Shown: positions 5,642 to 48,757, counted from the first letter of the stretch. The stretch is 64,000 nt of DNA from Elusimicrobiota bacterium (GCA_041650695.1 JBAZKS010000020.1:9364-73363); one strand, 5' to 3'. Numbers and translations: made by a program. Notes: a model not told the origin generated them from the sequence alone.

Positions 5642-5725
5642 TGGTTGGGGAAGGATTCGAACCTTCGAAGGGCTGAGCCCGCTGGTTTTACAGACCAGTC
5701 CATTTGACCGCTCTGGCACCCAACC
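5642..5725 (-). tRNA. tRNA-Tyr (anticodon GTA)
   Basis: The reverse complement GGTTGGGTGCCAGAGCGGTCAAATGGACTGGTCTGTAAAACCAGCGGGCTCAGCCCTTCGAAGGTTCGAATCCTTCCCCAACCA folds as a class II cloverleaf. It has a 7-bp acceptor stem, 3-bp D stem, anticodon stem CTGGT/ACCAG with loop CTGTAAA, a long variable arm (GGGC/GCCC), and T arm GAAGG-TTCGAAT-CCTTC. CCA is not encoded. Confidence 0.95.
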
Positions 5726-5841: not shown

Positions 5842-6262
5842 GATATGGGTAAGCCACAGCTGTCCGGGAAACCCAGGAATGGGTTTGCTGCTGCTGCTTC
5901 CAGTTGCCCCGGCCTCCGTTTCCGACATTTTAGTCCTTCTATTTCCAGCACTTTTCACATCGCCCGGGCGATGTGAATAATGCTGTGTTTTGCGTCACTT
6001 TTTTTCGCAAATGTGAGGAGTTTAACACGGATATCCCGCGCAGATGCGGCCTCGATCTGATGCTGTCCGGAATCATGTCTTGAGCAAATCTCTCTGAAAG
6101 ACTCCGATTGGAAGGGAACGCATCCAGGATTCGAGATGTTGGAGGCCGTCCGACTCAGGCGCAAGCCGACCAGGCGGGCGTTCCGTCGATGATTGATGCA
6201 TCCGTCGCTCACCGCCGAGCCTGGGTCCGCCCCGGAGAGCAGAATTTCCCCGGACAGTTCTG

Positions 6263-6487
6263 ATGGGTAAGCATGCCGGTTCCACCGATAGCCGCATACT
6301 CAGCTTGATCATGAGTCGTCCCGCCGGTTGGGTGTTCACACCGGCGGACTTGAGCGACTTGGGCAGCCGGGACGCCGTTGCCGGGGCTCTGAAACGGCAC
6401 AAGAAGGCGGGACTTATCCGCCAAGTCGCGCGGGGACTCTACGACTCTTTCCCGGTTTTAATTCAGATTAATCTAAGTCTATGCTAA
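6263..6487 (+). pseudogene. Truncated AbiEi-family antitoxin N-terminal fragment
   Basis: The 74-aa ORF has the pattern typical of AbiEi N-terminal wHTH domains (FTPADLSDLGSRDAVAGALKRHKKAGLIRQVARGLY). It stops immediately after that pattern. No AbiEii-type partner follows. Confidence 0.4.
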
Positions 6488-6523
6488 AAACCAGACTGTA
6501 ATCACGGTTTGGATTATTTAGTA

Positions 6524-6552
6524 TTGACAAATTCTATTCCATACTCTATTCT
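6524..6552 (+). promoter_or_regulatory. Sigma70-type promoter TTGACA-17-TATTCT predicting a leaderless HipA-family mRNA
   Basis: TTGACA (6524-6529) is followed by a 17-nt spacer and TATTCT (6547-6552). ATG 6559 starts 7 nt after the -10 and there is no SD. A direct repeat TCTATTC (6533-6539 and 6545-6551) overlaps the spacer and the -10. Confidence 0.5.
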
Positions 6553-6558
6553 ATAAGC

Positions 6559-7929
6559 ATGCCTAAAAGCCCACGGATTGATTTTGACAGAGTGGCAACG
6601 GATCTTAGAAAGCACCTCCTCAACGGAGTTTCAAGTGCTAGTGAGGCATGCAAATATCTTGGAATTAGCCAGTCAACGTTCTCAAGAGTTGTAACTCGGC
6701 TTACCGATGAGCTGTTGATAGTTGGCCGTGCCAGTAAGACTCGGTATGCTTTGAGAAGGACAATCCCTGATGTCGGATCCCAATGCCCAGTCTATCGCAT
6801 CGATGAACAGGGGAAGACTTCCAAGTTCGGGACTTTGCATGCGATACACTCGCGAGGGTTCTATTGCGAATCATCTCTTGATGCTAAGAACAAGAGCCAT
6901 TTCTTCCCAGACTTCCCCTATTTCCTGGATGACTTGAGACCCAGTGGCTTTTTAGGACGGCTAATTCCCAAGCAACATCTAGATTTGGATTTGCCAAAGA
7001 GGATCGATGATTGGACAGCCAATGACTGCCTGAAATATCTCACACGCTTCGGGCATGACTTGATTGGAGATTTAATTCTTGGAGATGAGGCATTTCAGCG
7101 TTATTTGGATGCAAACCGGGGGAGGCCTCATTTTATCTCGCGTGATGAGCGAAGCGAGGAATATCCAAAACGGGCGATTGATGTCCTGAAATTCGGCGAT
7201 CCTGGGTCCTCTGCAGGCGGGGAACAGCCCAAATTCTCGGCCATAGTCGGCCCAGAGATCACGCCCGTTCTTGTGAAGTTCTCTCCGAAGATCGAAGACA
7301 ATGTGAGTCGGAGACGCGCGGATCTCATGATTTGTGAGCACCTCAGTCTTGATGTCATAAGACGGTCCGGACACTCCGCTACCGAGTCTGAGCTTATTCA
7401 GGGCGAAAATCAGATTTTCCTGGAGGTTAAGCGATTCGACCGCACGGGGATACGAGGACGACTAGGCCTTGCGTCGCTTCGGGCCCTTGACGCCGAGTTT
7501 GTCGGCAATGGAAAGACATGGACGGAGATTTCTCAAGGGCTCTTGAAGCGGAGATTAATAGATGAAGATGCCTATCGCGATATTCGTTGGGCGGAGTGGT
7601 TTGGACACTTTATTGGGAACACTGATATGCATCCCGCGAATATGTCCTTCTATTTCCAACTCCCTCGGGTCGTCGGACTGGCTCCAGTCTACGATATGCT
7701 GCCTATGCTGTACGCCCCACAGAACGACCAAATCATCGAGAGGGAATTCCATCCGCCTTTACCAAAGCCTGACGATGCTGAAATCTGGCGGAGCGCTTGG
7801 ACGGCTGGATGCGAGTTTTGGACGGCCGTGAGCAATGATGCGAGGATATCCTCGAACTTCCGGCAGATCGCTCGGAAGAACCTTGAGCACCTGCGATCAA
7901 TCGAGGGATTGAGAGAACTCCTTCCCTAA
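6559..7929 (+). CDS. HipA-family Ser/Thr kinase toxin with fused N-terminal HTH (YjjJ/HipH-like)
   Basis: An N-terminal HTH is present (ACKYLGISQSTFSRVVTRL). The HipA-like motifs are GSSAGGEQPKFSA and GNTDMHPANMSF (catalytic-loop type N-x-D-x-H-x-x-N). The 456-aa length resembles E. coli YjjJ. G+C is lower than in the neighbouring genes. Confidence 0.75.
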   Translation: MPKSPRIDFDRVATDLRKHLLNGVSSASEACKYLGISQSTFSRVVTRLTDELLIVGRASKTRYALRRTIPDVGSQCPVYRIDEQGKTSKFGTLHAIHSRGFYCESSLDAKNKSHFFPDFPYFLDDLRPSGFLGRLIPKQHLDLDLPKRIDDWTANDCLKYLTRFGHDLIGDLILGDEAFQRYLDANRGRPHFISRDERSEEYPKRAIDVLKFGDPGSSAGGEQPKFSAIVGPEITPVLVKFSPKIEDNVSRRRADLMICEHLSLDVIRRSGHSATESELIQGENQIFLEVKRFDRTGIRGRLGLASLRALDAEFVGNGKTWTEISQGLLKRRLIDEDAYRDIRWAEWFGHFIGNTDMHPANMSFYFQLPRVVGLAPVYDMLPMLYAPQNDQIIEREFHPPLPKPDDAEIWRSAWTAGCEFWTAVSNDARISSNFRQIARKNLEHLRSIEGLRELLP

Positions 7930-8003
7930 CGTTTACCCCCTGCCGGTCCATCCGTCAAGGGCGTCTTGCGAAATCCTGGGACATGGGCTATCTTTGACAG
8001 GAC

Positions 8004-40262: not shown

Positions 40263-40424
40263 TCACATATTGTTGAAGTACGTCACGGCTCCGGTGGCCA
40301 GCGCGCCTCCGAGGATGCCGAGCAGCAGGGGGATGCCCAGCGCCCAGGCGAAGCAGCCGAAAGCGATCGCCCCGGCGAGCGCGCCTATGGCGATCTTCTT
40401 CCAGGGGATGTCCGGGCCCTTCTT
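40263..40424 (-). repeat. Paralogous 162-bp module encoding the shared C-terminal anchor (copy 1)
   Basis: It encodes 53 aa, of which roughly three quarters are identical to the module at 40862-41023 (hand alignment). Nucleotide similarity is visible along the whole module. Confidence 0.75.
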
Positions 40425-40757
40425 CTCCTCCGGCGCCGCCGGCTTCTTGTCCTCGCCCACGGTCGGGGTCTGTGCCGCCGACGCGGCCGTGACGGCCGGC
40501 CGCTGCGCGGCGGCCGGCGCGGCTCCGGTCTGCGTCAGGCCGAACTCCTGGGCCGCGGCATAGACGGCCGGGGCGTGCGAAGCGCCGCCGGCATAGCCCT
40601 TGCCGGAAAGCTCGGAGGTCGCCTCGGGAGAGAGAGCGTTCAGCGCCGTCCCCTGCATGGATCGTATCTTCCCGACGCGTTCGAGAGAGGCGCTCTCCGC
40701 TCCGACCGCCGCCCACGAAGGGACCGCGGCGATGAGGATGGTCGCGACAAGGATCAT
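40263..40757 (-). CDS. Secreted protein with conserved C-terminal two-helix anchor (paralogue A)
   Basis: Signal peptide MILVATILIAAVPSWAAVGA, then an Ala/Pro-rich region. The C-terminus is KKGPDIPWKKIAIGALAGAIAFGCFAWALGIPLLLGILGGALATGAVTYFNNM. Confidence 0.7.
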   Translation of the reverse strand: MILVATILIAAVPSWAAVGAESASLERVGKIRSMQGTALNALSPEATSELSGKGYAGGASHAPAVYAAAQEFGLTQTGAAPAAAQRPAVTAASAAQTPTVGEDKKPAAPEEKKGPDIPWKKIAIGALAGAIAFGCFAWALGIPLLLGILGGALATGAVTYFNNM

Positions 40758-40861: not shown

Positions 40862-41023
40862 CTACTTGTTGATGTACCACGTGACCGCCCCGGTGGCGAG
40901 CGCGCCGAGCACGATCGCCATGCCGATGGGCCCGCCCAGCGCCCAGGCGAAAGCGCCGAAGCAGATGGCTCCGGCGAGCGCGCCGATGCCGATCTTCCGC
41001 CATGGGATGTCGTCGCCCTTCTT
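40862..41023 (-). repeat. Paralogous 162-bp module encoding the shared C-terminal anchor (copy 2)
   Basis: It encodes KKGDDIPWRKIGIGALAGAICFGAFAWALGGPIGMAIVLGALATGAVTWYINK, to be compared with copy 1. Confidence 0.75.
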
Positions 41024-42166
41024 GGCCGGCGCGGCTTCCTCCTTCTTGTCCGGAGCCACCGGCGGCGGCTCCTTCATGGCGAGGGAGGGGGTCGTCTCGG
41101 ACGCCGGGACCTGATCCAGAGAGGACTGCGGAGCGGGCTCCTTCTTGGGGAAGAGCGCGCGGCAGCGGTCCAGGAGCACGTCCTGGCGCCGGTCCGCGAT
41201 GTCCGCGCCGGACTTCATGCCCTCGGGCTTCTTCGCCTGGTCGGCCTCCTGCGAGACTCCCGCGGCGGTCCTGAGCTGGTCCATGGCCGGGACCTTGGGG
41301 ACGTCCGCTTCCGCGGGCCCGCTCTGGGTCTGGCGTTTGTCGCAGTAGGCCTTGAAGTAGGCGAGCAGGTCGTCGCGGGCCACGCCTTTCCCCTTGAGCG
41401 TGGCGTCGAGGTCCTTGAGGGCCGGGGAGGAGGGCTTGCCGTCGGTCACGAGGTAGTCGCTGACCCCGTCGAGGACGTCCTGGCGCATCTTGCCGATGAA
41501 GCCCGCGAGCGTCCCATCCTTGCGCATCTTGTCGATGGCCGCGGGCAGCTGCTCGGACTTCAGCTTGAGCTCGGCGACCATCTTCCTGAGAAGATGGCCG
41601 GCCACGGCCCGCTCCACCTTGTCGCTGAAGAGGGCGTCCGTTGCCTGGGCCAGGGGGTCCGTCTTGCCGGTATCGGCCTTGGGCGGCTCAGGCTTCTTCG
41701 GAGTCTCGGGCTTGCGGGGTTGCTGCGGCTTCCTGGGCTGCTGGGGCTTCTTCCCCGGGGTGAGCCGGACGTACAGGACCGACGTGGGGCTCGTGACCCT
41801 CGGCCGGACCGTGACCCTGGACTTTTTCCCGTCCTTCACGGTCCACACATCCTGGCCGTCCCATATCATCCGGTAAGGCGAGGGCACGGCGTCGTAGTCG
41901 ATGCGGTCGCCGTTCTGGCGCATGTTGCGGAAGTAGAAGAGGGGGACCGGGGTGTTGCGCTTCTGGTAGATGGTCCCGCCCTTGAACTTGTCGTTCGGGG
42001 GGGAGGTGTCGTAGGCGTAGCCCCAGAGCGTCTCGCCCGCGCCATCGGCATGGAAGTCGTCCCAGTCTCCCCACTGCGTCTCTTTGTTTTCCCAGGGGTA
42101 TTGGCCGGCGAGGGCGGGGGCCGCGAAGAACAGCGTCAGGAGGGCGGAAGAAAGCGTTTTGGGCAT
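40862..42166 (-). CDS. Secreted protein with conserved C-terminal two-helix anchor (paralogue B)
   Basis: ATG 42166 gives the signal peptide MPKTLSSALLTLFFAAPALAG. A Trp/Tyr/Asp-rich globular N-domain follows, then a KPQQPRKPQQPRKPETPKKPEPPK repeat linker, a helical middle, and the same C-terminal anchor as paralogue A. Confidence 0.7.
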   Translation of the reverse strand: MPKTLSSALLTLFFAAPALAGQYPWENKETQWGDWDDFHADGAGETLWGYAYDTSPPNDKFKGGTIYQKRNTPVPLFYFRNMRQNGDRIDYDAVPSPYRMIWDGQDVWTVKDGKKSRVTVRPRVTSPTSVLYVRLTPGKKPQQPRKPQQPRKPETPKKPEPPKADTGKTDPLAQATDALFSDKVERAVAGHLLRKMVAELKLKSEQLPAAIDKMRKDGTLAGFIGKMRQDVLDGVSDYLVTDGKPSSPALKDLDATLKGKGVARDDLLAYFKAYCDKRQTQSGPAEADVPKVPAMDQLRTAAGVSQEADQAKKPEGMKSGADIADRRQDVLLDRCRALFPKKEPAPQSSLDQVPASETTPSLAMKEPPPVAPDKKEEAAPAKKGDDIPWRKIGIGALAGAICFGAFAWALGGPIGMAIVLGALATGAVTWYINK

Positions 42167-42206
42167 GGGGATATTGTACCACGGTTTCTCCCGGAGTCTA
42201 CACATC

Positions 42207-43598: not shown

Positions 43599-43624
43599 GG
43601 TATCATTTTGGTAAAATCAGTCGG

Positions 43625-44458
43625 ATGCGGAAAAGCCTCGCGCTCCTCGCGCTTCTCGTCCAGGGATGCGTCCCGCTTCCTCCAGAAGAAGTCCCTTCCG
43701 CCCCTGCCGCGCAGGGGCGTCGGGTCGTTTCCATGGATCTGGACTCGGGGCACAAGCGTCACTCGACGCGGCATTTCGAGGTGCGCGCCTATTCCGAGGA
43801 TTCGGCCCGGGAAGCGGGCGAACTCGCGGAGCGGCTCATGGAGCGCGTCCTGAAGGACACGGGGCTCTACTCCTTCCAGACCCGGCTTCCCATCCCCGTC
43901 TTCCTGTATAGGTCCCAGGAGGAGTTCTCCGTGAAGACGGACATCCCTCCCGGAGCGGCGGCCGGCGCCGCTGACCGGAGCGGGACCCTCTTCACGTTCG
44001 AAGGAGCGCCTCTCGGGAACGTGCTGTCCCATGAGATCAGCCATCTGATTTTCATCGAGTACATGGGGCGCATGGAACCGCTCTGGGTCAACGAGGGCCT
44101 GGCCGTATACGAGGAACAGGAGGCTTCCTCGGACCCGACGCCGTATTCCGCGGGGGACAGGCTCATCCCGTTCCGCGAGATGGCGGGATTGGAGACCGCG
44201 CAGATCATCGCGCTCTCCTCGGCGCGGGGGTTGCGCCTCGCCGGACTTCCCCGGCGGGAGGAGTCCATGAGCGCGTGGTACCGCCAGGCCGGAGGGGTGG
44301 TGCGCCTCATGATCGAGAAGGGCGGATATGGGGGGTTCGCGAGGTTCCTGGCGGCCCTGCGCGACGGCAGGAGCGAGAGCGAGGCGATCGGGCTGAGTTT
44401 TCAAGGGCGTTGGAAGGGGATGGCGGACCTGGAGGCGGAGTGGCGTACGGGACGGTGA
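43625..44458 (+). CDS. Lipoprotein with MA-clan (HExxH) peptidase-like domain
   Basis: ATG 43625 lies inside track ORF 43316..44458. It has the lipobox LALLALLVQGC, the zinc motif SHEISHL (HExxH) and a downstream NEGLAVYEE. Confidence 0.65.
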   Translation: MRKSLALLALLVQGCVPLPPEEVPSAPAAQGRRVVSMDLDSGHKRHSTRHFEVRAYSEDSAREAGELAERLMERVLKDTGLYSFQTRLPIPVFLYRSQEEFSVKTDIPPGAAAGAADRSGTLFTFEGAPLGNVLSHEISHLIFIEYMGRMEPLWVNEGLAVYEEQEASSDPTPYSAGDRLIPFREMAGLETAQIIALSSARGLRLAGLPRREESMSAWYRQAGGVVRLMIEKGGYGGFARFLAALRDGRSESEAIGLSFQGRWKGMADLEAEWRTGR

Positions 44459-46413
44459 CGCGCATCTCCACGCTGCGTCTCGGCCTGACCGCGACGCTCA
44501 CCGGCATCATCCTGCTCGAGGCCCCCTTGAGGCTTTCGCCGTACACCGTGTGGGCGATCGGGGGAGTCGTGCTGGTCTGGTGCGGGTCCCCGTTCCACCA
44601 CGGGCTCAGGCTCGCTCTGGCCGCCGCCAGCGCGGACTCCGACATGCTCATCTCCATCAGCCTGTGGGGCGCGTTCGTCTTCAGCACCGCGGCGGTGTTC
44701 CTCAACGAGCTCCTGCCTGCGGCGTTCCGCCAGCATCAGCTCGGGCCCATGGCCGCGCTGGTCGTCTGTTCGCTGGCCGGCCGGTGGCTGGAGAGCCGGC
44801 TGACCGCCCGCGGGGGAGAGGCGCTCGGGAGGCTGCTCCGAAGGCTCCCTCACGCCGCTCGTCTCGTCCGGGACGGGCGCGAATCCGTCTCCCCGTCCAA
44901 GGACGTCCGCGTCGGCGACCGCGTCCGGGTCCTTTCCGGCGAGCTCATCCCCTTCGACGGGACCGTCTGCGCCGGATCATCCTCTGTCGACGAGTCCTTG
45001 TGGACCGGATACGAGGCGGCGGTCGAGAAGACCGTCGGCAGCCGCGTCTACGGGGGCACCCAGAACAAGGGCGGGACCCTGACGGTCGAGGTCGGCCAGG
45101 TGGGCCCCGGCATGACCCTTTCAAAGCTGGTCGCTTCCGTGCTCGAGGGGCTGGACGCCAAGGAGACGGGGGCCGGGAGCGCGGATCGCCTCGCGCAGGG
45201 CTACGTGCCGGCCATCGTCATCGTGGCGGTGGGGGTGGCCGTGCTTTGGTCGTGGAAGGGCCCCGAGCCTCGGGTGTGGCACGCGTTCACCGCGCTGACG
45301 CTCGTGCTGGCCGGCTCCTGTCCGCTGGCCTTCACCGCCGCCGCCCCTGCCGCTCTTGCGGCAGGTATGCGGCGCGCGGCCAGGCGCGGCATCCGGATAC
45401 GCAATCCGGGGCACCTCCAGCGGATGAAGGTCCCGGATGTCGTCATCCTGAGCAAGAAGGGCGTCCTGACCGCGGGGATGCCCGAGGTGGCCGAGGTCCT
45501 CGCCTCGGACGGGTGGAGCGAGGGGGAGCTCCTCCGATGGGCGGCCGCCGCGGAGAGCCGGTCCGGCCATCCTTTCGCCCATGCGGTCCGGCGCCGCGTC
45601 GGGGAAGCGCCGCTGCCCGCCCTGGAATCGGTGGAGACCTCTCCGGGCCGTGGTCTGGTGTCCTTGGTGGCCGGGCGGCGCGTCGTGGTCGGCAGCCTGC
45701 AGTTCCTCGCGGACCAGGGCGTCGAGACTTCCCGCTTCGCCGAAGGCCGCCTGGAGGGGAAGCACCATCCGCTGGCCGGGGTGGCCGTGGACGGCGAGAT
45801 GGCCGGGGTCGTCCTCTTCACGGAACCGCTGCGCGAGGGCTCCGAGGACAAAATCCGGATGCTCGAGAGGCTGGGCATCGAGGTGGTCCTGGCCTCGGGC
45901 GACCGCGCTCCGGCCGTGCGCCGGGCGGCCCAGATCGCCGGCATCGGGAAGATCTTCGCGGACGTGCTGGAGGAAGGCAAGACCCGGCTGGTCGCGCAGT
46001 TCCGCGCGGCCGGACGGACCGTCGCGATGGTCGGCGACGGGGTGCACGACGCCGTGGCCATGAGCCGCGCGGACCTCGGGATGGCCCTGGCTCCCCTGCG
46101 CGCGGAGGATGACGAGCCCGGGCGCAGGCATCGGGCGGCCTTCGATTTATCGGCCGAAGTGGCCGACATCGTGCTGTCCAAGCGGGATCTGGCGAGTCTG
46201 GTCTACGGCATCCAGCTCAGCATCCGGATCCGGAGGACCGTCCGGGAGAACCTCATGTGGGCTTTCGCCTTCCACCTCCCGCTGGTCCCCATCGCGGCGG
46301 GAGCGCTTTTCGTGTCCACGGGCGCCAGCTACGGTCCCCTTTATCCCTTGGCCGCGACTGCGCTCGGCGTCGTGGCCATCACCGTCAATTCCATCAGGAG
46401 GCTCAAGCAGTGA
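44440..46413 (+). CDS. P1B-type (heavy-metal) P-type ATPase homologue with degenerate catalytic motifs, no N-terminal metal-binding domain
   Basis: The whole length aligns by hand to CopA-type pumps. However TGES=TGYE, CPC=CPL, DKTGT=SKKGV, TGDN=SGDR and GDGINDAP=GDGVHDAV; the HP motif is retained (SGHPF). The start is GTG 44440 (after GGAGG) or GTG 44455 (GTGA overlap). Confidence 0.8.
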   Translation: MAYGTVTRISTLRLGLTATLTGIILLEAPLRLSPYTVWAIGGVVLVWCGSPFHHGLRLALAAASADSDMLISISLWGAFVFSTAAVFLNELLPAAFRQHQLGPMAALVVCSLAGRWLESRLTARGGEALGRLLRRLPHAARLVRDGRESVSPSKDVRVGDRVRVLSGELIPFDGTVCAGSSSVDESLWTGYEAAVEKTVGSRVYGGTQNKGGTLTVEVGQVGPGMTLSKLVASVLEGLDAKETGAGSADRLAQGYVPAIVIVAVGVAVLWSWKGPEPRVWHAFTALTLVLAGSCPLAFTAAAPAALAAGMRRAARRGIRIRNPGHLQRMKVPDVVILSKKGVLTAGMPEVAEVLASDGWSEGELLRWAAAAESRSGHPFAHAVRRRVGEAPLPALESVETSPGRGLVSLVAGRRVVVGSLQFLADQGVETSRFAEGRLEGKHHPLAGVAVDGEMAGVVLFTEPLREGSEDKIRMLERLGIEVVLASGDRAPAVRRAAQIAGIGKIFADVLEEGKTRLVAQFRAAGRTVAMVGDGVHDAVAMSRADLGMALAPLRAEDDEPGRRHRAAFDLSAEVADIVLSKRDLASLVYGIQLSIRIRRTVRENLMWAFAFHLPLVPIAAGALFVSTGASYGPLYPLAATALGVVAITVNSIRRLKQ

Positions 46414-46814
46414 AACGGACGCGATTGGGCTATACCTCGGGGCAGGCGGTCTCCGGAGTCAAGGACCGCCTTCCGCCGATCGAAACGTGGCCGAACCAGT
46501 ACCGGGGATACGAGATACGCATCGAGATCCCCGAGTTCACCTCGGTGTGTCCCAAGACGGGCCTGCCGGATTTCGGGACCGTCGTGATCGAGTACCTGCC
46601 GGACCGGCGGTGCATCGAGCTTAAGTCGCTGAAGTACTACATCCTGGCGTACCGGAACATGGGGATCTTCTACGAGAACGCGGTCAACCGCATCCTCGAC
46701 GATGTGGCCGCCGCGACCCGGCCCGTGTGGGCGAAGGTCACCGGCGCTTTCACGGCGCGCGGCGGCATGCGGTCCACGGTCACCGCGCGCTATCCTAGGA
46801 AGAGGGGTGGCTGA
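46410..46814 (+). CDS. queF: NADPH-dependent 7-cyano-7-deazaguanine reductase (QueF, short type)
   Basis: GTG 46410 forms a GTGA overlap and is preceded by AGGAGG 8 nt upstream. The motif EFTSVCPKTGLPDFG carries the catalytic Cys, followed by IELKSLKYYILAYRNMGIFYE. Confidence 0.85.
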   Translation: MKRTRLGYTSGQAVSGVKDRLPPIETWPNQYRGYEIRIEIPEFTSVCPKTGLPDFGTVVIEYLPDRRCIELKSLKYYILAYRNMGIFYENAVNRILDDVAAATRPVWAKVTGAFTARGGMRSTVTARYPRKRGG

Positions 46815-48135
46815 ACTCAGCGTCGGCTTCTGCGGCGACTCCGCCCGGGCGGGCCCGGACTGGCTCCGGGTCCTGAGCAGGCGCGGGCTGGCCGCGGAAG
46901 GGAGGGCGGGGCCCTCCCTGTTCATGACGGTCGTAGGGAAATGGCCGGAGCGTCCCCAAGTGCTGGTCGCCCCGAATTGCACAGACCTATCCTGCGGGCC
47001 CGCGACGCTGTCGTTGCCGTCTGAGACGCTGCTCATCGGAGCGCTCCAGCGCCTGAGCGGGATGGATAGGTCCGCATGCGGCTCCGACCCGGCGCGGGCA
47101 GGCTATGACTACGCGACCGCGAACTTCCCGGATATGGGGCTCCGCCTTCCCGGAGGGGACGGCGTCCCTCGCGCCGCCTTGAACGGGCTCTCTTCGAGCC
47201 TGCTGGGGGCTCTTTGCGCCGGGTGCAGGTTCATCGCTTGGGGGCTCCCGGGAGACCCGCCCGCCTGGGCCGCCGGCTTCGAACGCGCAACAGGCTCGGA
47301 AAGGGCCGTGTCCATGGCCTTGGGCGCGGGGCACGCGGGCGCGCGGGCCATGGCCGTGGTCTCGGCGAGCGAGATGGAGTCGGCCTCCCGCATCCTCCGC
47401 TGGGCCGCGGAGGCCGAGGTGCCGTGCGTGGTGCTGGCCGCCGGGGAGGGCTTCGGGATCGTCCCGTCCATGGCGGAGTGGGTGGAGTCCGCCCCCGCCG
47501 CGTTCTTCGTTCCTGCCACGGTGGAGGAGGCGGGCAAGACCGCCGCCCAGGCCTTTGACTGGGCTGAGACCTATCAATGCCCGGTCTGCGTCTCTTTGTC
47601 CGGCCTGATGGACCGATGGTCCGCGGTCGCGCGGCCCGGGAAGACAGAGACCTCCCGCGGCCTCTGGGCATCGCCTGGAGAGGGGCGCTACCGCGACACG
47701 CCCGCCGGCATCTCCCCTCGAGCGGTCCCAGGGCAGGAAGGGCTCGAGTATTCCGCCTGTCCGGCGGACGCCTCGAGGTCGAAGAAGCTCGAGCGCAAGC
47801 ACATCGCTCTGCTTTCCTCGGCGCCGGGCTTGAGCGCCGCGGGGACGGGCCTGTGCGTGGCGGCGAGCGGTAGCCTCGCTGGGGAGCTCCGCCGGCTCGA
47901 AGGGCGCTTCAAGCTCGTCGCGGTGGACCGTCTGCTCCCGTTCCCGGCAGCTCTCCTGGCCGGGGAGATGAAGACTTCCTGGAGGACGGTGGTGGCCGAG
48001 TGGGAGGGGGACACGGCCTTGCGCGGGCTCATTCGTCGCCAGTTGAGCGTGGACCTCCCCACCCTGCAGATCCCGCGGAGCGCGGACATGGAGAGCCTGC
48101 GAGGGTCCGTTTTGGAGGCGGTCGGCCGTGATTGA
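46807..48135 (+). CDS. 2-oxoacid:ferredoxin oxidoreductase gamma/alpha-like protein (divergent)
   Basis: It aligns by hand to KorA-type subunits (LLGALCAGCRFIAWG; ERAVSMALGAGHAGARAMAVVS; AEAEVPCVVL), with a gamma-like N-terminus (SVGFCGDSARAG). The conserved SGPG and RGGPSTG stretches read SASE and GEGFG. The GTG start overlaps queF by 8 nt. Third-position G+C supports this frame. Confidence 0.5.
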   Translation: MAELSVGFCGDSARAGPDWLRVLSRRGLAAEGRAGPSLFMTVVGKWPERPQVLVAPNCTDLSCGPATLSLPSETLLIGALQRLSGMDRSACGSDPARAGYDYATANFPDMGLRLPGGDGVPRAALNGLSSSLLGALCAGCRFIAWGLPGDPPAWAAGFERATGSERAVSMALGAGHAGARAMAVVSASEMESASRILRWAAEAEVPCVVLAAGEGFGIVPSMAEWVESAPAAFFVPATVEEAGKTAAQAFDWAETYQCPVCVSLSGLMDRWSAVARPGKTETSRGLWASPGEGRYRDTPAGISPRAVPGQEGLEYSACPADASRSKKLERKHIALLSSAPGLSAAGTGLCVAASGSLAGELRRLEGRFKLVAVDRLLPFPAALLAGEMKTSWRTVVAEWEGDTALRGLIRRQLSVDLPTLQIPRSADMESLRGSVLEAVGRD

Positions 48136-48757
48136 GGAGTTCCGCATCCCCTCGCGCTCCCCCGCCGTGGAGATGGAGCCTCTGCCGGCCGGAGAGACGC
48201 CTTTCGGCCGCGCGTTGTCCATCTGCGGCTTCCATCCCAAGGACGTGCTCTGCGTCTGCGAGCGCGTCGAGGAAGCGCGTTCCCCCAGGGGACCCCATAT
48301 GCCCCTGGGGCTGCGGGAAGCGGAAGGGGCCCGCTGTTACCAGGTCGCGGGCTTGGGCGGCAGGCATGCGCTCGCTTTCGCGCTGGGCAGCCGCGCCGCG
48401 AACCCCGGGCTGACCCTCGTCGTGTTCACGGACTCGCCGGACCTCGAGGACCTGGCCGCCGCGTGCAGGAAGAACCTGGACCTCACCTGCGTCACGCCCC
48501 GGACCGGCCTGCTGCCCGTGGCGCAGGCGGCCGGCGCGACCTTCCTCTGCAGAGCGAACCCGGACTCCCTCGCGTCCTCGCTGGCGCAGGCCATGCAGCA
48601 CAAGGGTTTCTCTTTGGTGGAGCTCGCGGACGGCCCTCCGGAGGTCCTGCATGAGAGCCGCAGGCCCGTATGGGAGAGAGGCTGCGAGCCTCGCGTCAGG
48701 CTCCCGGTCCCGATGCCCGAGCCGGAGAGGCTCTCGCTTTGGGAGCGCCTCCTGTGA
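48128..48757 (+). CDS. 2-oxoacid:ferredoxin oxidoreductase beta-like protein lacking the TPP/Mg motif
   Basis: It aligns by hand to the KorB core (RHALAFALGSRAANPGLTLVVF; ACRKNLDLTCV; AAGATFLCRA...HKGFSLVEL). The GDGD..NN thiamine-diphosphate motif reads TDSPD, and the N-terminal Cys motif is not conserved. The GTG start overlaps the previous gene by 8 nt. Confidence 0.45.
   Translation: MIEEFRIPSRSPAVEMEPLPAGETPFGRALSICGFHPKDVLCVCERVEEARSPRGPHMPLGLREAEGARCYQVAGLGGRHALAFALGSRAANPGLTLVVFTDSPDLEDLAAACRKNLDLTCVTPRTGLLPVAQAAGATFLCRANPDSLASSLAQAMQHKGFSLVELADGPPEVLHESRRPVWERGCEPRVRLPVPMPEPERLSLWERLL

Follow-up and report, generated by a model that had tools for sequence, protein, structure and literature searches.

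A degenerate P1B-type ATPase homologue kept under purifying selection beside a gluzincin-like lipoprotein in Elusimicrobiota

P-type ATPases are defined by an aspartyl-phosphate cycle. Like all HAD-family phosphotransferases they require an Asp nucleophile, hydrolysis of the E2P intermediate requires the Glu of the TGE motif, and transport of Cu(I) requires the ligands provided by the CPC, YN and MxxSS motifs of the membrane domain. What, then, is a protein that aligns with copper pumps from end to end and carries none of these residues in their proper places? The question is raised by a 657-residue protein encoded in a 64,000-nucleotide stretch of DNA from an Elusimicrobiota bacterium (GCA_041650695.1 JBAZKS010000020.1:9364-73363), which we refer to as the window. 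Its gene lies between a gene for a lipoprotein and queF (Table 1). That it encodes a dead pump kept by selection appears to us highly probable. The fuller reading, in which an orthologue of Cu(I)-type P1B ATPases has lost both catalysis and transport and is kept, most plausibly as the membrane partner of the neighbouring lipoprotein, is one that we consider somewhat likely when taken as a whole.

The ATPase-like gene starts with a GTG codon, 5 nt downstream of a GGAGG, and remains open for 657 codons to a TGA. Its product is matched by the Pfam families E1-E2_ATPase (1e-39) and HAD Hydrolase (2e-19), and TIGR01525, the NCBIfam model of P1B heavy-metal ATPases, scores it at 369.9 bits against a cutoff of 346.25, with profile positions 2-559 of 560 covered. 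In phmmer searches of PDB sequences, residues 43-653 align with Legionella CopA (3rfu, E = 1e-82) and residues 19-652 with an archaeal CopA (7r0g). An earlier note on this DNA had described full-length alignment with CopA-type pumps, and these boundaries bear it out. An AlphaFold2 (AF2) model built on 16 orthologues has a predicted local distance difference test (pLDDT) score of 86.7 and a predicted template modelling (pTM) score of 0.81; disorder is limited to the N-terminal 7 residues and an insertion (555-566, pLDDT < 50). Foldseek aligned the model with Legionella pneumophila CopA (LpCopA; 4bbj/3rfu) at a template modelling (TM) score of 0.71 over ~665 columns. An E1-E2_ATPase domain, HAD phosphorylation (P) and nucleotide-binding (N) domains and an eight-helix membrane domain, the components of P1B architecture, are all present in the window protein. 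As judged from the model, the complete P1B fold is kept and the catalytic and ion-binding residues have been removed from it.

An N-terminal HMA domain with a CxxC motif is frequent in P1B ATPases and not obligatory. The window protein has no Pfam match to HMA, and such a domain is impossible here because the preceding DNA belongs to another gene, which overlaps the start codon by 19 nt; the earlier claim that no HMA domain precedes the first transmembrane helix therefore stands. A longer N-terminus hiding an HMA domain was considered and rejected, since the in-frame stretch at 44275-44439 is part of the lipoprotein gene and the start chosen by gene callers is 44440. The window encodes no second canonical P-type ATPase: DKTG[TVI] and GDGxND are absent from it in all frames.

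Every motif column reads alike in the HMMER alignments to both CopA structures and in that to the NCBIfam profile, so that the hand alignment on which the earlier note relied was not shifted. A shifted alignment was rejected as an explanation for the unusual motifs, as the profile and structure alignments place a Ser, not an Asp, in the phosphorylation column. The motifs read by eye (TGYE, CPL, SKKGV, GDGVHDAV, and SGHPF with its H-P dipeptide retained) were all recovered in the PDB-sequence and profile alignments. In their wider context, the canonical VDESMVTGEP corresponds to VDESLWTGYE in the window protein, ACPCAL to SCPLAF, VVDKTGTLT to ILSKKGVLT, TGD to SGD, GDGVNDAP to GDGVHDAV and SEHP to SGHP. 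Ser338, in the phospho-Asp column, is specified by an AGC codon (45451-45453), and the Glu one position after Tyr191 in TGYE is not conserved among orthologues. We found losses beyond those listed before, namely M5 YN, M6 MxxSS and the Glu of SEHP, together with a clade-specific insertion of ~16 residues after the GIAL strand of the P domain. Retention of the ion path was judged from residue identities. With the Asp, the TGE Glu and the CPC, YN and MxxSS ligands missing, Post-Albers pumping is not expected, in agreement with the earlier conclusion.

Two of the earlier statements need to be narrowed. The canonical TGDN was reported to read SGDR, and SGD is indeed what stands there, but SGDR is no sign of inactivation, since canonical sister pumps that are presumably active carry it as well. 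Both SGDR and G(E/D)G(F) are common to canonical and degenerate members and are therefore traits of the lineage. The assertion that every catalytic signature has been substituted is correct for the key losses and overstated in general, several catalytic-site residues being invariant across the clade, as described below.

The substitutions are reproduced in independent data. The source run is a landfill metagenome, and a Logan assembly made from it includes a 10,950-bp contig with a depth of 12 that matches positions 44300-46500 with 0 mismatches and 0 gaps. An orthologue with 88% identity from a separate metagenome (P0002, locus L007) has TGYE, CPL, SKKGV and GDGVHDAV, all identical. Since the independent assembly is identical and the same codons, including those of SKKGV, recur in the independent metagenome, a sequencing or assembly error was rejected.

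Purifying selection on the gene is evident at several levels. Between the window and L007, 87 non-synonymous and 138 synonymous differences give a Nei-Gojobori ratio of non-synonymous to synonymous substitution rates (dN/dS) of 0.20 (dN 0.063, dS 0.315; Fisher p = 5e-30). The ratio is significantly below 1 in each domain taken separately, at 0.20 for the membrane domain, 0.20 for the actuator (A) domain, 0.12 for the P domain and 0.23 for the N domain. Further pairs of orthologues gave 0.10-0.34, and two canonical sister pumps compared at equal dS gave 0.12. Not one stop codon or frameshift was encountered among ~30 orthologous genes examined (30-88% identity). The G+C content at third codon positions (GC3) is 0.90, similar to that of neighbouring genes, which agrees with the coding-like composition noted earlier. 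Across genomes, identity to the window copy is 44-52% for the ATPase-like protein, 38-43% for the lipoprotein, 50-55% for RluD and 55-65% for the TRAM methyltransferase (RumA). The uninterrupted orthologues and the low dN/dS support the view taken in the earlier note, of a maintained pseudo-enzyme as opposed to a decaying gene.

A search of 5.8 billion proteins returned 17 close relatives (46-88% identity, ~650 residues, no HMA domain), of which the named ones come from Elusimicrobiota metagenome-assembled genomes (MAGs). They were followed by P0018, a 747-residue, HMA-bearing Elusimicrobia protein at 43%, and then by CopA-type pumps at 36% or less. In a profile search of 1.84 billion cluster representatives, five degenerate proteins scored 647-1042 bits, a canonical HMA-bearing protein 613, and canonical pumps at most 544; the gap indicates that the clade is narrow. 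GTDB species representatives with the clade gene are all Elusimicrobiota or unclassified 'bacterium' MAGs.

To describe what the clade has lost we used columns that are at least 85% conserved in 93 canonical relatives and are also kept in the syntenic canonical sisters. The losses include E191, C296, D338, N536 and P511. The TGE column is Glu in 100% of the canonical relatives and 5% of the clade, where a single member retains it. The phospho-Asp column, likewise Asp in 100% of the canonical relatives, is Asp in about a third of the clade (DKTGV, DKKGI) and otherwise Ser, Asn, Gln or Gly. In place of the second Cys of CPC, 91% of the clade has Trp, in motifs that read CPW, VPW, APW or TPW, and the window protein has Leu. 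The hinge Asn is replaced by His, Gln, Arg or Leu, with the second Asp retained, and the M5 YN and M6 MxxSS ligands are gone across the clade. The Glu of SEHP, which is Glu in 52% of the 93 relatives and in all syntenic canonical sisters, is Gly in most of the clade and Glu in no degenerate member.

Other residues of the same sites are untouched. The Lys and Gly of DKTGT (K339, G341), the Asp of TGD (D488), the second Asp of GDGxND (D537) and H377-P378 are invariant in the clade, as are the N-domain glycines G403, G405 and G418; the P-domain Lys K514 is nearly so, with Arg in P0006 and P0008. Newly fixed residues, absent from canonical pumps, are W188 (directly before TG), W296 (CPW), R311, R319, P323, G376, E511 and R654, and the second residue after the phospho-Asp column, Thr in DKTGT, has become Lys in many members (xKKGx). 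Within the clade, identity is 46-59% across domains, and M3-M4 is the best-conserved membrane segment at 56%. Compared with canonical groups, the N domain and MA-M2 are conserved relatively more in the clade, and identity in M5-M6 is lower (0.48 versus 0.58-0.62). Two periplasmic-loop motifs are enriched in the orthogroup and not universal: LSPY, in the short MA-MB loop, is present in most members, and WKGPEPR, in the M3-M4 loop, is present in many clade members and in P0018, and absent from P0119-P0122. Four divergent, HMA-less proteins are degenerate in other ways. At the TGE, CPC, DKTGT and hinge columns, in that order, P0128 reads NDRT, CPP, DKTGV and GSSFYDAA; P0146 reads TGQD, APV, EKSGI and GEGFKAVP; P0158 reads FGRS, CPC, GKRGA and GEGFADAA; and P0199 reads HNST, CPC, GKTGV and GQKFSDAA.

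A neighbour-joining tree (Kimura-corrected distances, 640 columns, 200 bootstraps) recovered the core degenerate clade in 200/200 replicates and all degenerate proteins together in 188/200. The degenerate proteins grouped with the canonical P0018 and P0118/L016 in 198/200, and the whole lipoprotein-linked orthogroup, including P0119-P0122, was recovered in 200/200. No degenerate member retains the HMA domain, the M6 Met/Ser ligands, the hinge Asn or the SEHP Glu, and all but one have lost the TGE Glu. The phospho-Asp has a different history. It is retained by the basal core members P0114-P0116 and replaced in separate, well-supported sub-lineages: by Ser or Asn in P0001-3, by Gln in P0006/8, by Gly in the P0010-17 group and by Asn in L010/L011/L091; outside the core clade the column holds Glu or Gly. 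On this tree the phospho-Asp would have been lost at least four times independently. Repeated loss of the Asp, the best-conserved residue of the superfamily, together with purifying selection on every domain is expected if catalysis was already gone in the common ancestor and the protein was retained on other grounds.

In the window and at more than 20 other loci, genes for a Peptidase_MA_2 lipoprotein, an ATPase or ATPase-like protein and QueF follow one another with overlaps of 4-19 nt. A lipoprotein gene of ~270 codons stands directly 5' of the ATPase or ATPase-like gene, with overlapping stop and start, at every locus examined; in the window the overlap is 19 nt. At nearly all orthologous loci queF comes next, overlapping by 4 nt (in the window the shared letters are GTGA, 46410-46413), and a divergent TRAM/U5-methyltransferase gene lies upstream; the neighbourhood is of a housekeeping kind, with ileS-lspA, rluD and thrS. 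The divergent degenerate proteins P0128, P0146 and P0158 sit in the same slot. So do canonical pumps (P0018/L006, L016/L017, the locus of P0118, P0119/L090, and L092), which carry HMA, TGES, CPC, DKTG(T/V), SEHP, G(E/D)GFNDAP, YN and MxxSS. All of these follow the lipoprotein gene with overlapping codons, and queF comes next in L006 and L092. A reciprocal search that started from lipoprotein homologues led back to a neighbouring ATPase gene, degenerate in L091 and canonical in L092. With canonical pumps in the same slot of sister lineages, the pump apparently degenerated in place, and did so once, subject to the long-branch artefacts to which a distance tree is prone.

The lipoprotein has a signal peptide with a lipobox (LLVQGC) and an M1-like gluzincin signature, HExxH plus NEGLAVYEE, which is conserved in the aligned orthologues except that at locus L089. 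An independent protein search returned 10 homologues, the named ones being Elusimicrobia 'hypothetical proteins'. Orthologues pass the Pfam cutoff for Peptidase_MA_2 and the window protein falls under it (18.8 bits). The window protein and its closest relative, P0264, contain an insertion of ~22 residues (GLETAQIIALSSARGLRLAGLP) that all other orthologues lack, and this insertion probably explains the low score. In Foldseek, the AF2 model of the lipoprotein (pLDDT 84.1, pTM 0.83) matches clostridial collagenase and M1 aminopeptidases in their peptidase domains, with TM scores of ~0.5. At L089 the lipoprotein gene (L089:1418-2239) overlaps that of P0128 (L089:2232-4181), and both genes are intact. 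There HExxH reads YEITR and NEGLA reads QNGLA, so that the zinc ligands are lost next to one of the most degenerate ATPase homologues. To judge from these residues, L089 encodes a pseudo-peptidase paired with a pseudo-ATPase.

These observations can be accommodated by a simple history. Pumping would have stopped once, in the ancestor of the clade, and the useless Asp would then have drifted to Ser, Asn, Gln, Gly or Glu in separate sub-lineages. The protein would have survived because the ancestral pump already served a second purpose that needs no catalysis, most likely as the inner-membrane partner of the lipoprotein that is translated with it and faces the periplasm, be it as anchor, scaffold or conformational regulator. 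Indirect signs of such a partnership are the adjacency and codon overlap found in both search directions, periplasmic loops that are conserved in part, and the pair at L089 in which both members are degenerate. Among the roles suggested in the earlier note (scaffold, sensor or channel-like), synteny favours that of a scaffold or partner.

Several points weigh against this reading. The specific claim of an inner-membrane partner for the co-encoded lipoprotein draws on gene order, overlapping codons and loop conservation, and we put it forward tentatively. The ATPase-like gene is coupled equally tightly to queF, whose product has no evident connection with either protein; the coupling may thus reflect nothing but a compact housekeeping operon, or in part genome compaction. 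No RNA runs holding the locus were found. Long-branch attraction in a distance tree could inflate support for the monophyly of all degenerate forms. In the third of the clade that keeps the Asp (DKTGV, DKKGI), residual chemistry may persist. Finally, the invariant P-site and N-domain residues, together with a P domain that is the most constrained of all, fit binding of a nucleotide or phosphate at least as well as they fit a pure scaffold.

This last point is the substance of the main rival, a nucleotide-binding switch or sensor that would hold ATP, ADP or phosphate in the cleft between the P and N domains without turnover and signal the energy state across the membrane, for example to the lipoprotein, through E1/E2-like movements. 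Apart from the invariant residues and the low dN/dS of the P domain, such a role would account for the retention of all three cytoplasmic domains at the levels of identity given above, and the Lys of xKKGx brings a new positive charge into the phosphate site of many members. However, the Glu of the adenine site is never Glu in the degenerate proteins (a column that is, admittedly, Glu in just over half of the canonical relatives), the Mg2+ and phosphate ligands (the first Asp of GDG, Asn536 and Thr342) are variable or lost, and the residues that are conserved may serve folding alone. We regard a switch or sensor as unlikely, and it is the alternative to which we give most weight. Reuse of the membrane domain as a passive conduit, an ion or small-molecule channel or facilitator uncoupled from ATP, is improbable. 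All eight helices are kept under purifying selection and M3-M4 is the best-conserved membrane segment, but the known metal ligands of M4, M5 and M6 have all given way to aliphatic or aromatic residues. A bulky Trp or Leu in place of the ion-binding Cys of CPC would fill the cavity and not open it, which makes a channel role hard to sustain. M5-M6 is less conserved than in canonical groups, and a channel has no need of conserved A, P and N domains.

The two remaining explanations bracket the dead-pump reading from either side. A pump that is still active, by unorthodox chemistry or on another substrate, would agree with the score above the curated TIGR01525 cutoff, with the database names of clade members as active transporters and with the Asp kept by some of them. 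The Asp nucleophile and TGE Glu are obligatory, however; the Asp column is Ser here and Gly, Asn, Gln or Glu in relatives, and the Glu, every transport-site ligand and the hinge Asn are absent along with it. We consider continued pumping very improbable. A decaying pseudogene or an artefact of sequencing or assembly, which the joint alteration of many catalytic residues might bring to mind, is scarcely credible in view of the uninterrupted orthologues, the dN/dS of every pair compared, the GC3, the assembly that is identical over 2.2 kb and the recurrence of SKKGV, CPL and TGYE in an independent metagenome. Thus the reading as a dead orthologue kept by selection, possibly as a partner of the lipoprotein, is the one that we retain.

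Comparison with known systems defines what sets the window protein apart. With CopA of L. pneumophila (3rfu/4bbj) and Archaeoglobus fulgidus (7r0g/3j09) it shares the eight-helix membrane domain, the A, P and N domains, the H-P dipeptide, the TGD Asp and the P-domain Lys. Unlike CopA, it has neither the phospho-Asp nor the TGE Glu, it is without an HMA domain, and the second Cys of CPC, YN, MxxSS, the SEHP Glu and the hinge Asn are likewise missing. It has also gained the disordered P-domain insertion of ~16 residues. On account of its losses it is no working member of the Cu(I)-exporting P1B-1 family. The canonical Elusimicrobiota pumps of the same slot (P0018/L006, L016/L017, L092 and P0119/L090) are orthologous to it at 39-43% identity. 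They too follow the lipoprotein gene with overlapping codons, usually with queF next, and share with it SGDR, G(E/D)GF and a short MA-MB loop with a (L/F)S(P)Y-type motif. In contrast to the window protein they keep HMA, TGES, CPC, DKTG(T/V), SEHP, the Asn of NDAP, YN and MxxSS, and are presumably active copper pumps.

Pseudoenzymes such as pseudokinases and pseudophosphatases have lost catalytic residues and retain sequence and fold under purifying selection. The window protein shows catalytic loss with the fold kept, and both purifying selection and intact orthologues were found. Our search of the literature (P-type ATPase pseudoenzymes, Asp-less P1B proteins, FUPA families, Elusimicrobia P-type ATPases) returned no description of the clade, and in the searchable literature we found no described example of a bacterial P-type ATPase pseudoenzyme. 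The nearest likeness is in alveolate flippase-guanylate cyclase chimeras (haemosporidian P4GC-beta and Cryptosporidium P4GC), in which the DKTGT Asp and the LDGET Glu have been lost in some lineages, and whose module is still required although its ATPase activity is suspected to be lost or modified (PMC13466520). In both cases a P-type ATPase fold is kept despite substitution of the Asp and the A-domain Glu. The P4GC modules, however, are eukaryotic P4 lipid flippases fused to a cyclase and are not homologous to the window protein at the subfamily level, whereas the window protein is a free-standing bacterial P1B homologue whose partner, if any, is a separately encoded lipoprotein.

Table 1. 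Coordinates of the ATPase-like gene, its motifs and its cassette neighbours in the window
Feature	Position	Strand	Details	Basis
Lipoprotein, stand-alone gluzincin (Peptidase_MA_2-like) domain	43625..44458	+	HEISH, NEGLAVYEE, lipobox	AF2/Foldseek
Degenerate P1B-type ATPase homologue, 657 residues	44440..46413	+	Eight transmembrane helices plus A, P and N domains, without HMA	Pfam, NCBIfam and PDB matches, AF2
A-domain TGYE replacing TGES	45004..45015	+	Tyr191 in the dephosphorylation Glu column	Alignment
M4 motif CPL replacing CPC	45319..45327	+	CPW in most of the clade	Alignment
P-domain SKKGVLT replacing DKTGTLT	45451..45471	+	Ser338 in the phospho-Asp column	Alignment; also in orthologue P0002/L007
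N-domain SGHPF	45562..45576	+	H-P dipeptide retained; Glu of SEHP replaced by Gly	Alignment
Hinge GDGVHDAV replacing GDGxNDxP	46033..46056	+	Asn replaced by His536; Asp537 retained	Alignment
Clade-specific charged P-domain insertion	46090..46146	+	Residues ~551-569, predicted disordered	Alignment; pLDDT < 50 at 555-566
M5-M6 region, Cu(I) ligands lost	46261..46386	+	YN replaced by FH; MxxSS by TALGV	Alignment
queF (preQ0 reductase-like)	46410..46814	+	GTG start; AGGAGG 8 nt upstream	Pfam QueF, 5e-29

Other features of the cassette and its surroundings were recorded. The starts of the divergent TRAM/U5-methyltransferase gene (43598, minus strand) and of the lipoprotein gene (43625) are separated by 26 AT-rich bp (43599-43624; gtatcattttggtaaaatcagtcgg), in which a scan for the sigma-70 consensus found nothing. 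A promoter and terminator scan from the lipoprotein gene to rluD gave no sigma-70-like sites and no terminator, and is uninformative. PADLOC returned no match for the ATPase-like protein or the lipoprotein, and the idea of a defence-system component was rejected for that reason. Between queF and rluD lie two plus-strand genes, one (46702-48135) with a weak match to POR_N (thiamine-diphosphate-binding, 29.5 bits) and one (48128-48757) with no family match; similar uncharacterised genes are found in the same slot of L005, L003 and L091. On the other side, between lspA and the TRAM methyltransferase gene, two adjacent minus-strand open reading frames (40263-40757 and 40862-42205) have no Pfam family and share a near-identical C-terminal segment, KKGxDIPWxKIxIGALAGAIxFGxFAWALG, that resembles a glycine-zipper membrane anchor. 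The product of the second also has a proline-rich KPQQPR/KPE repeat, and the equivalent slot of L001 holds a Gly-zipper protein and a 452-residue protein. Farther away, at 6001-8000, a low-GC island (0.52, against 0.65-0.70 elsewhere) adjoins a tRNA-Tyr gene (5642-5725, minus strand) and contains an open reading frame (6559-7929, plus strand) for a HipA_C-type kinase-like protein (Pfam, 1e-19). The island is probably an element of the toxin-antitoxin type that arrived by horizontal transfer.

There is a practical consequence for annotation. NCBI names the clade members P0004, P0013 and P0017 'heavy metal translocating P-type ATPase' and JGI names P0007 'Cu+-exporting ATPase'; given such labels and a score above the TIGR01525 cutoff, inventories of metal resistance in metagenomes will miscount these proteins. 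For the family, a P1B homologue that is devoid of the Asp, the Glu and the transport ligands and is conserved domain by domain indicates that the fold can be retained for a use other than pumping. The evolutionary argument is strong, and the presence of active and dead orthologues in the same operon makes it unusually clean; the present-day function is hypothetical. Active and dead orthologues in one operon make a natural before-and-after pair in which further functions of a copper pump can be sought, and one candidate for such an extra function is the docking or control of a periplasmic lipoprotein. A wider reading, which we hold to be rather doubtful, makes these proteins the first free-standing family of bacterial P-type ATPase pseudoenzymes to be recognised. 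On this view a copper pump would have lost catalysis and ion binding once, in an Elusimicrobiota ancestor, and its descendants would have been retained, through divergence spanning hundreds of millions of years, as a structural or conformational subunit of a membrane complex with the periplasm-facing gluzincin lipoprotein. If this reading is true, a non-transport function would already be latent in the active pumps of the lineage.

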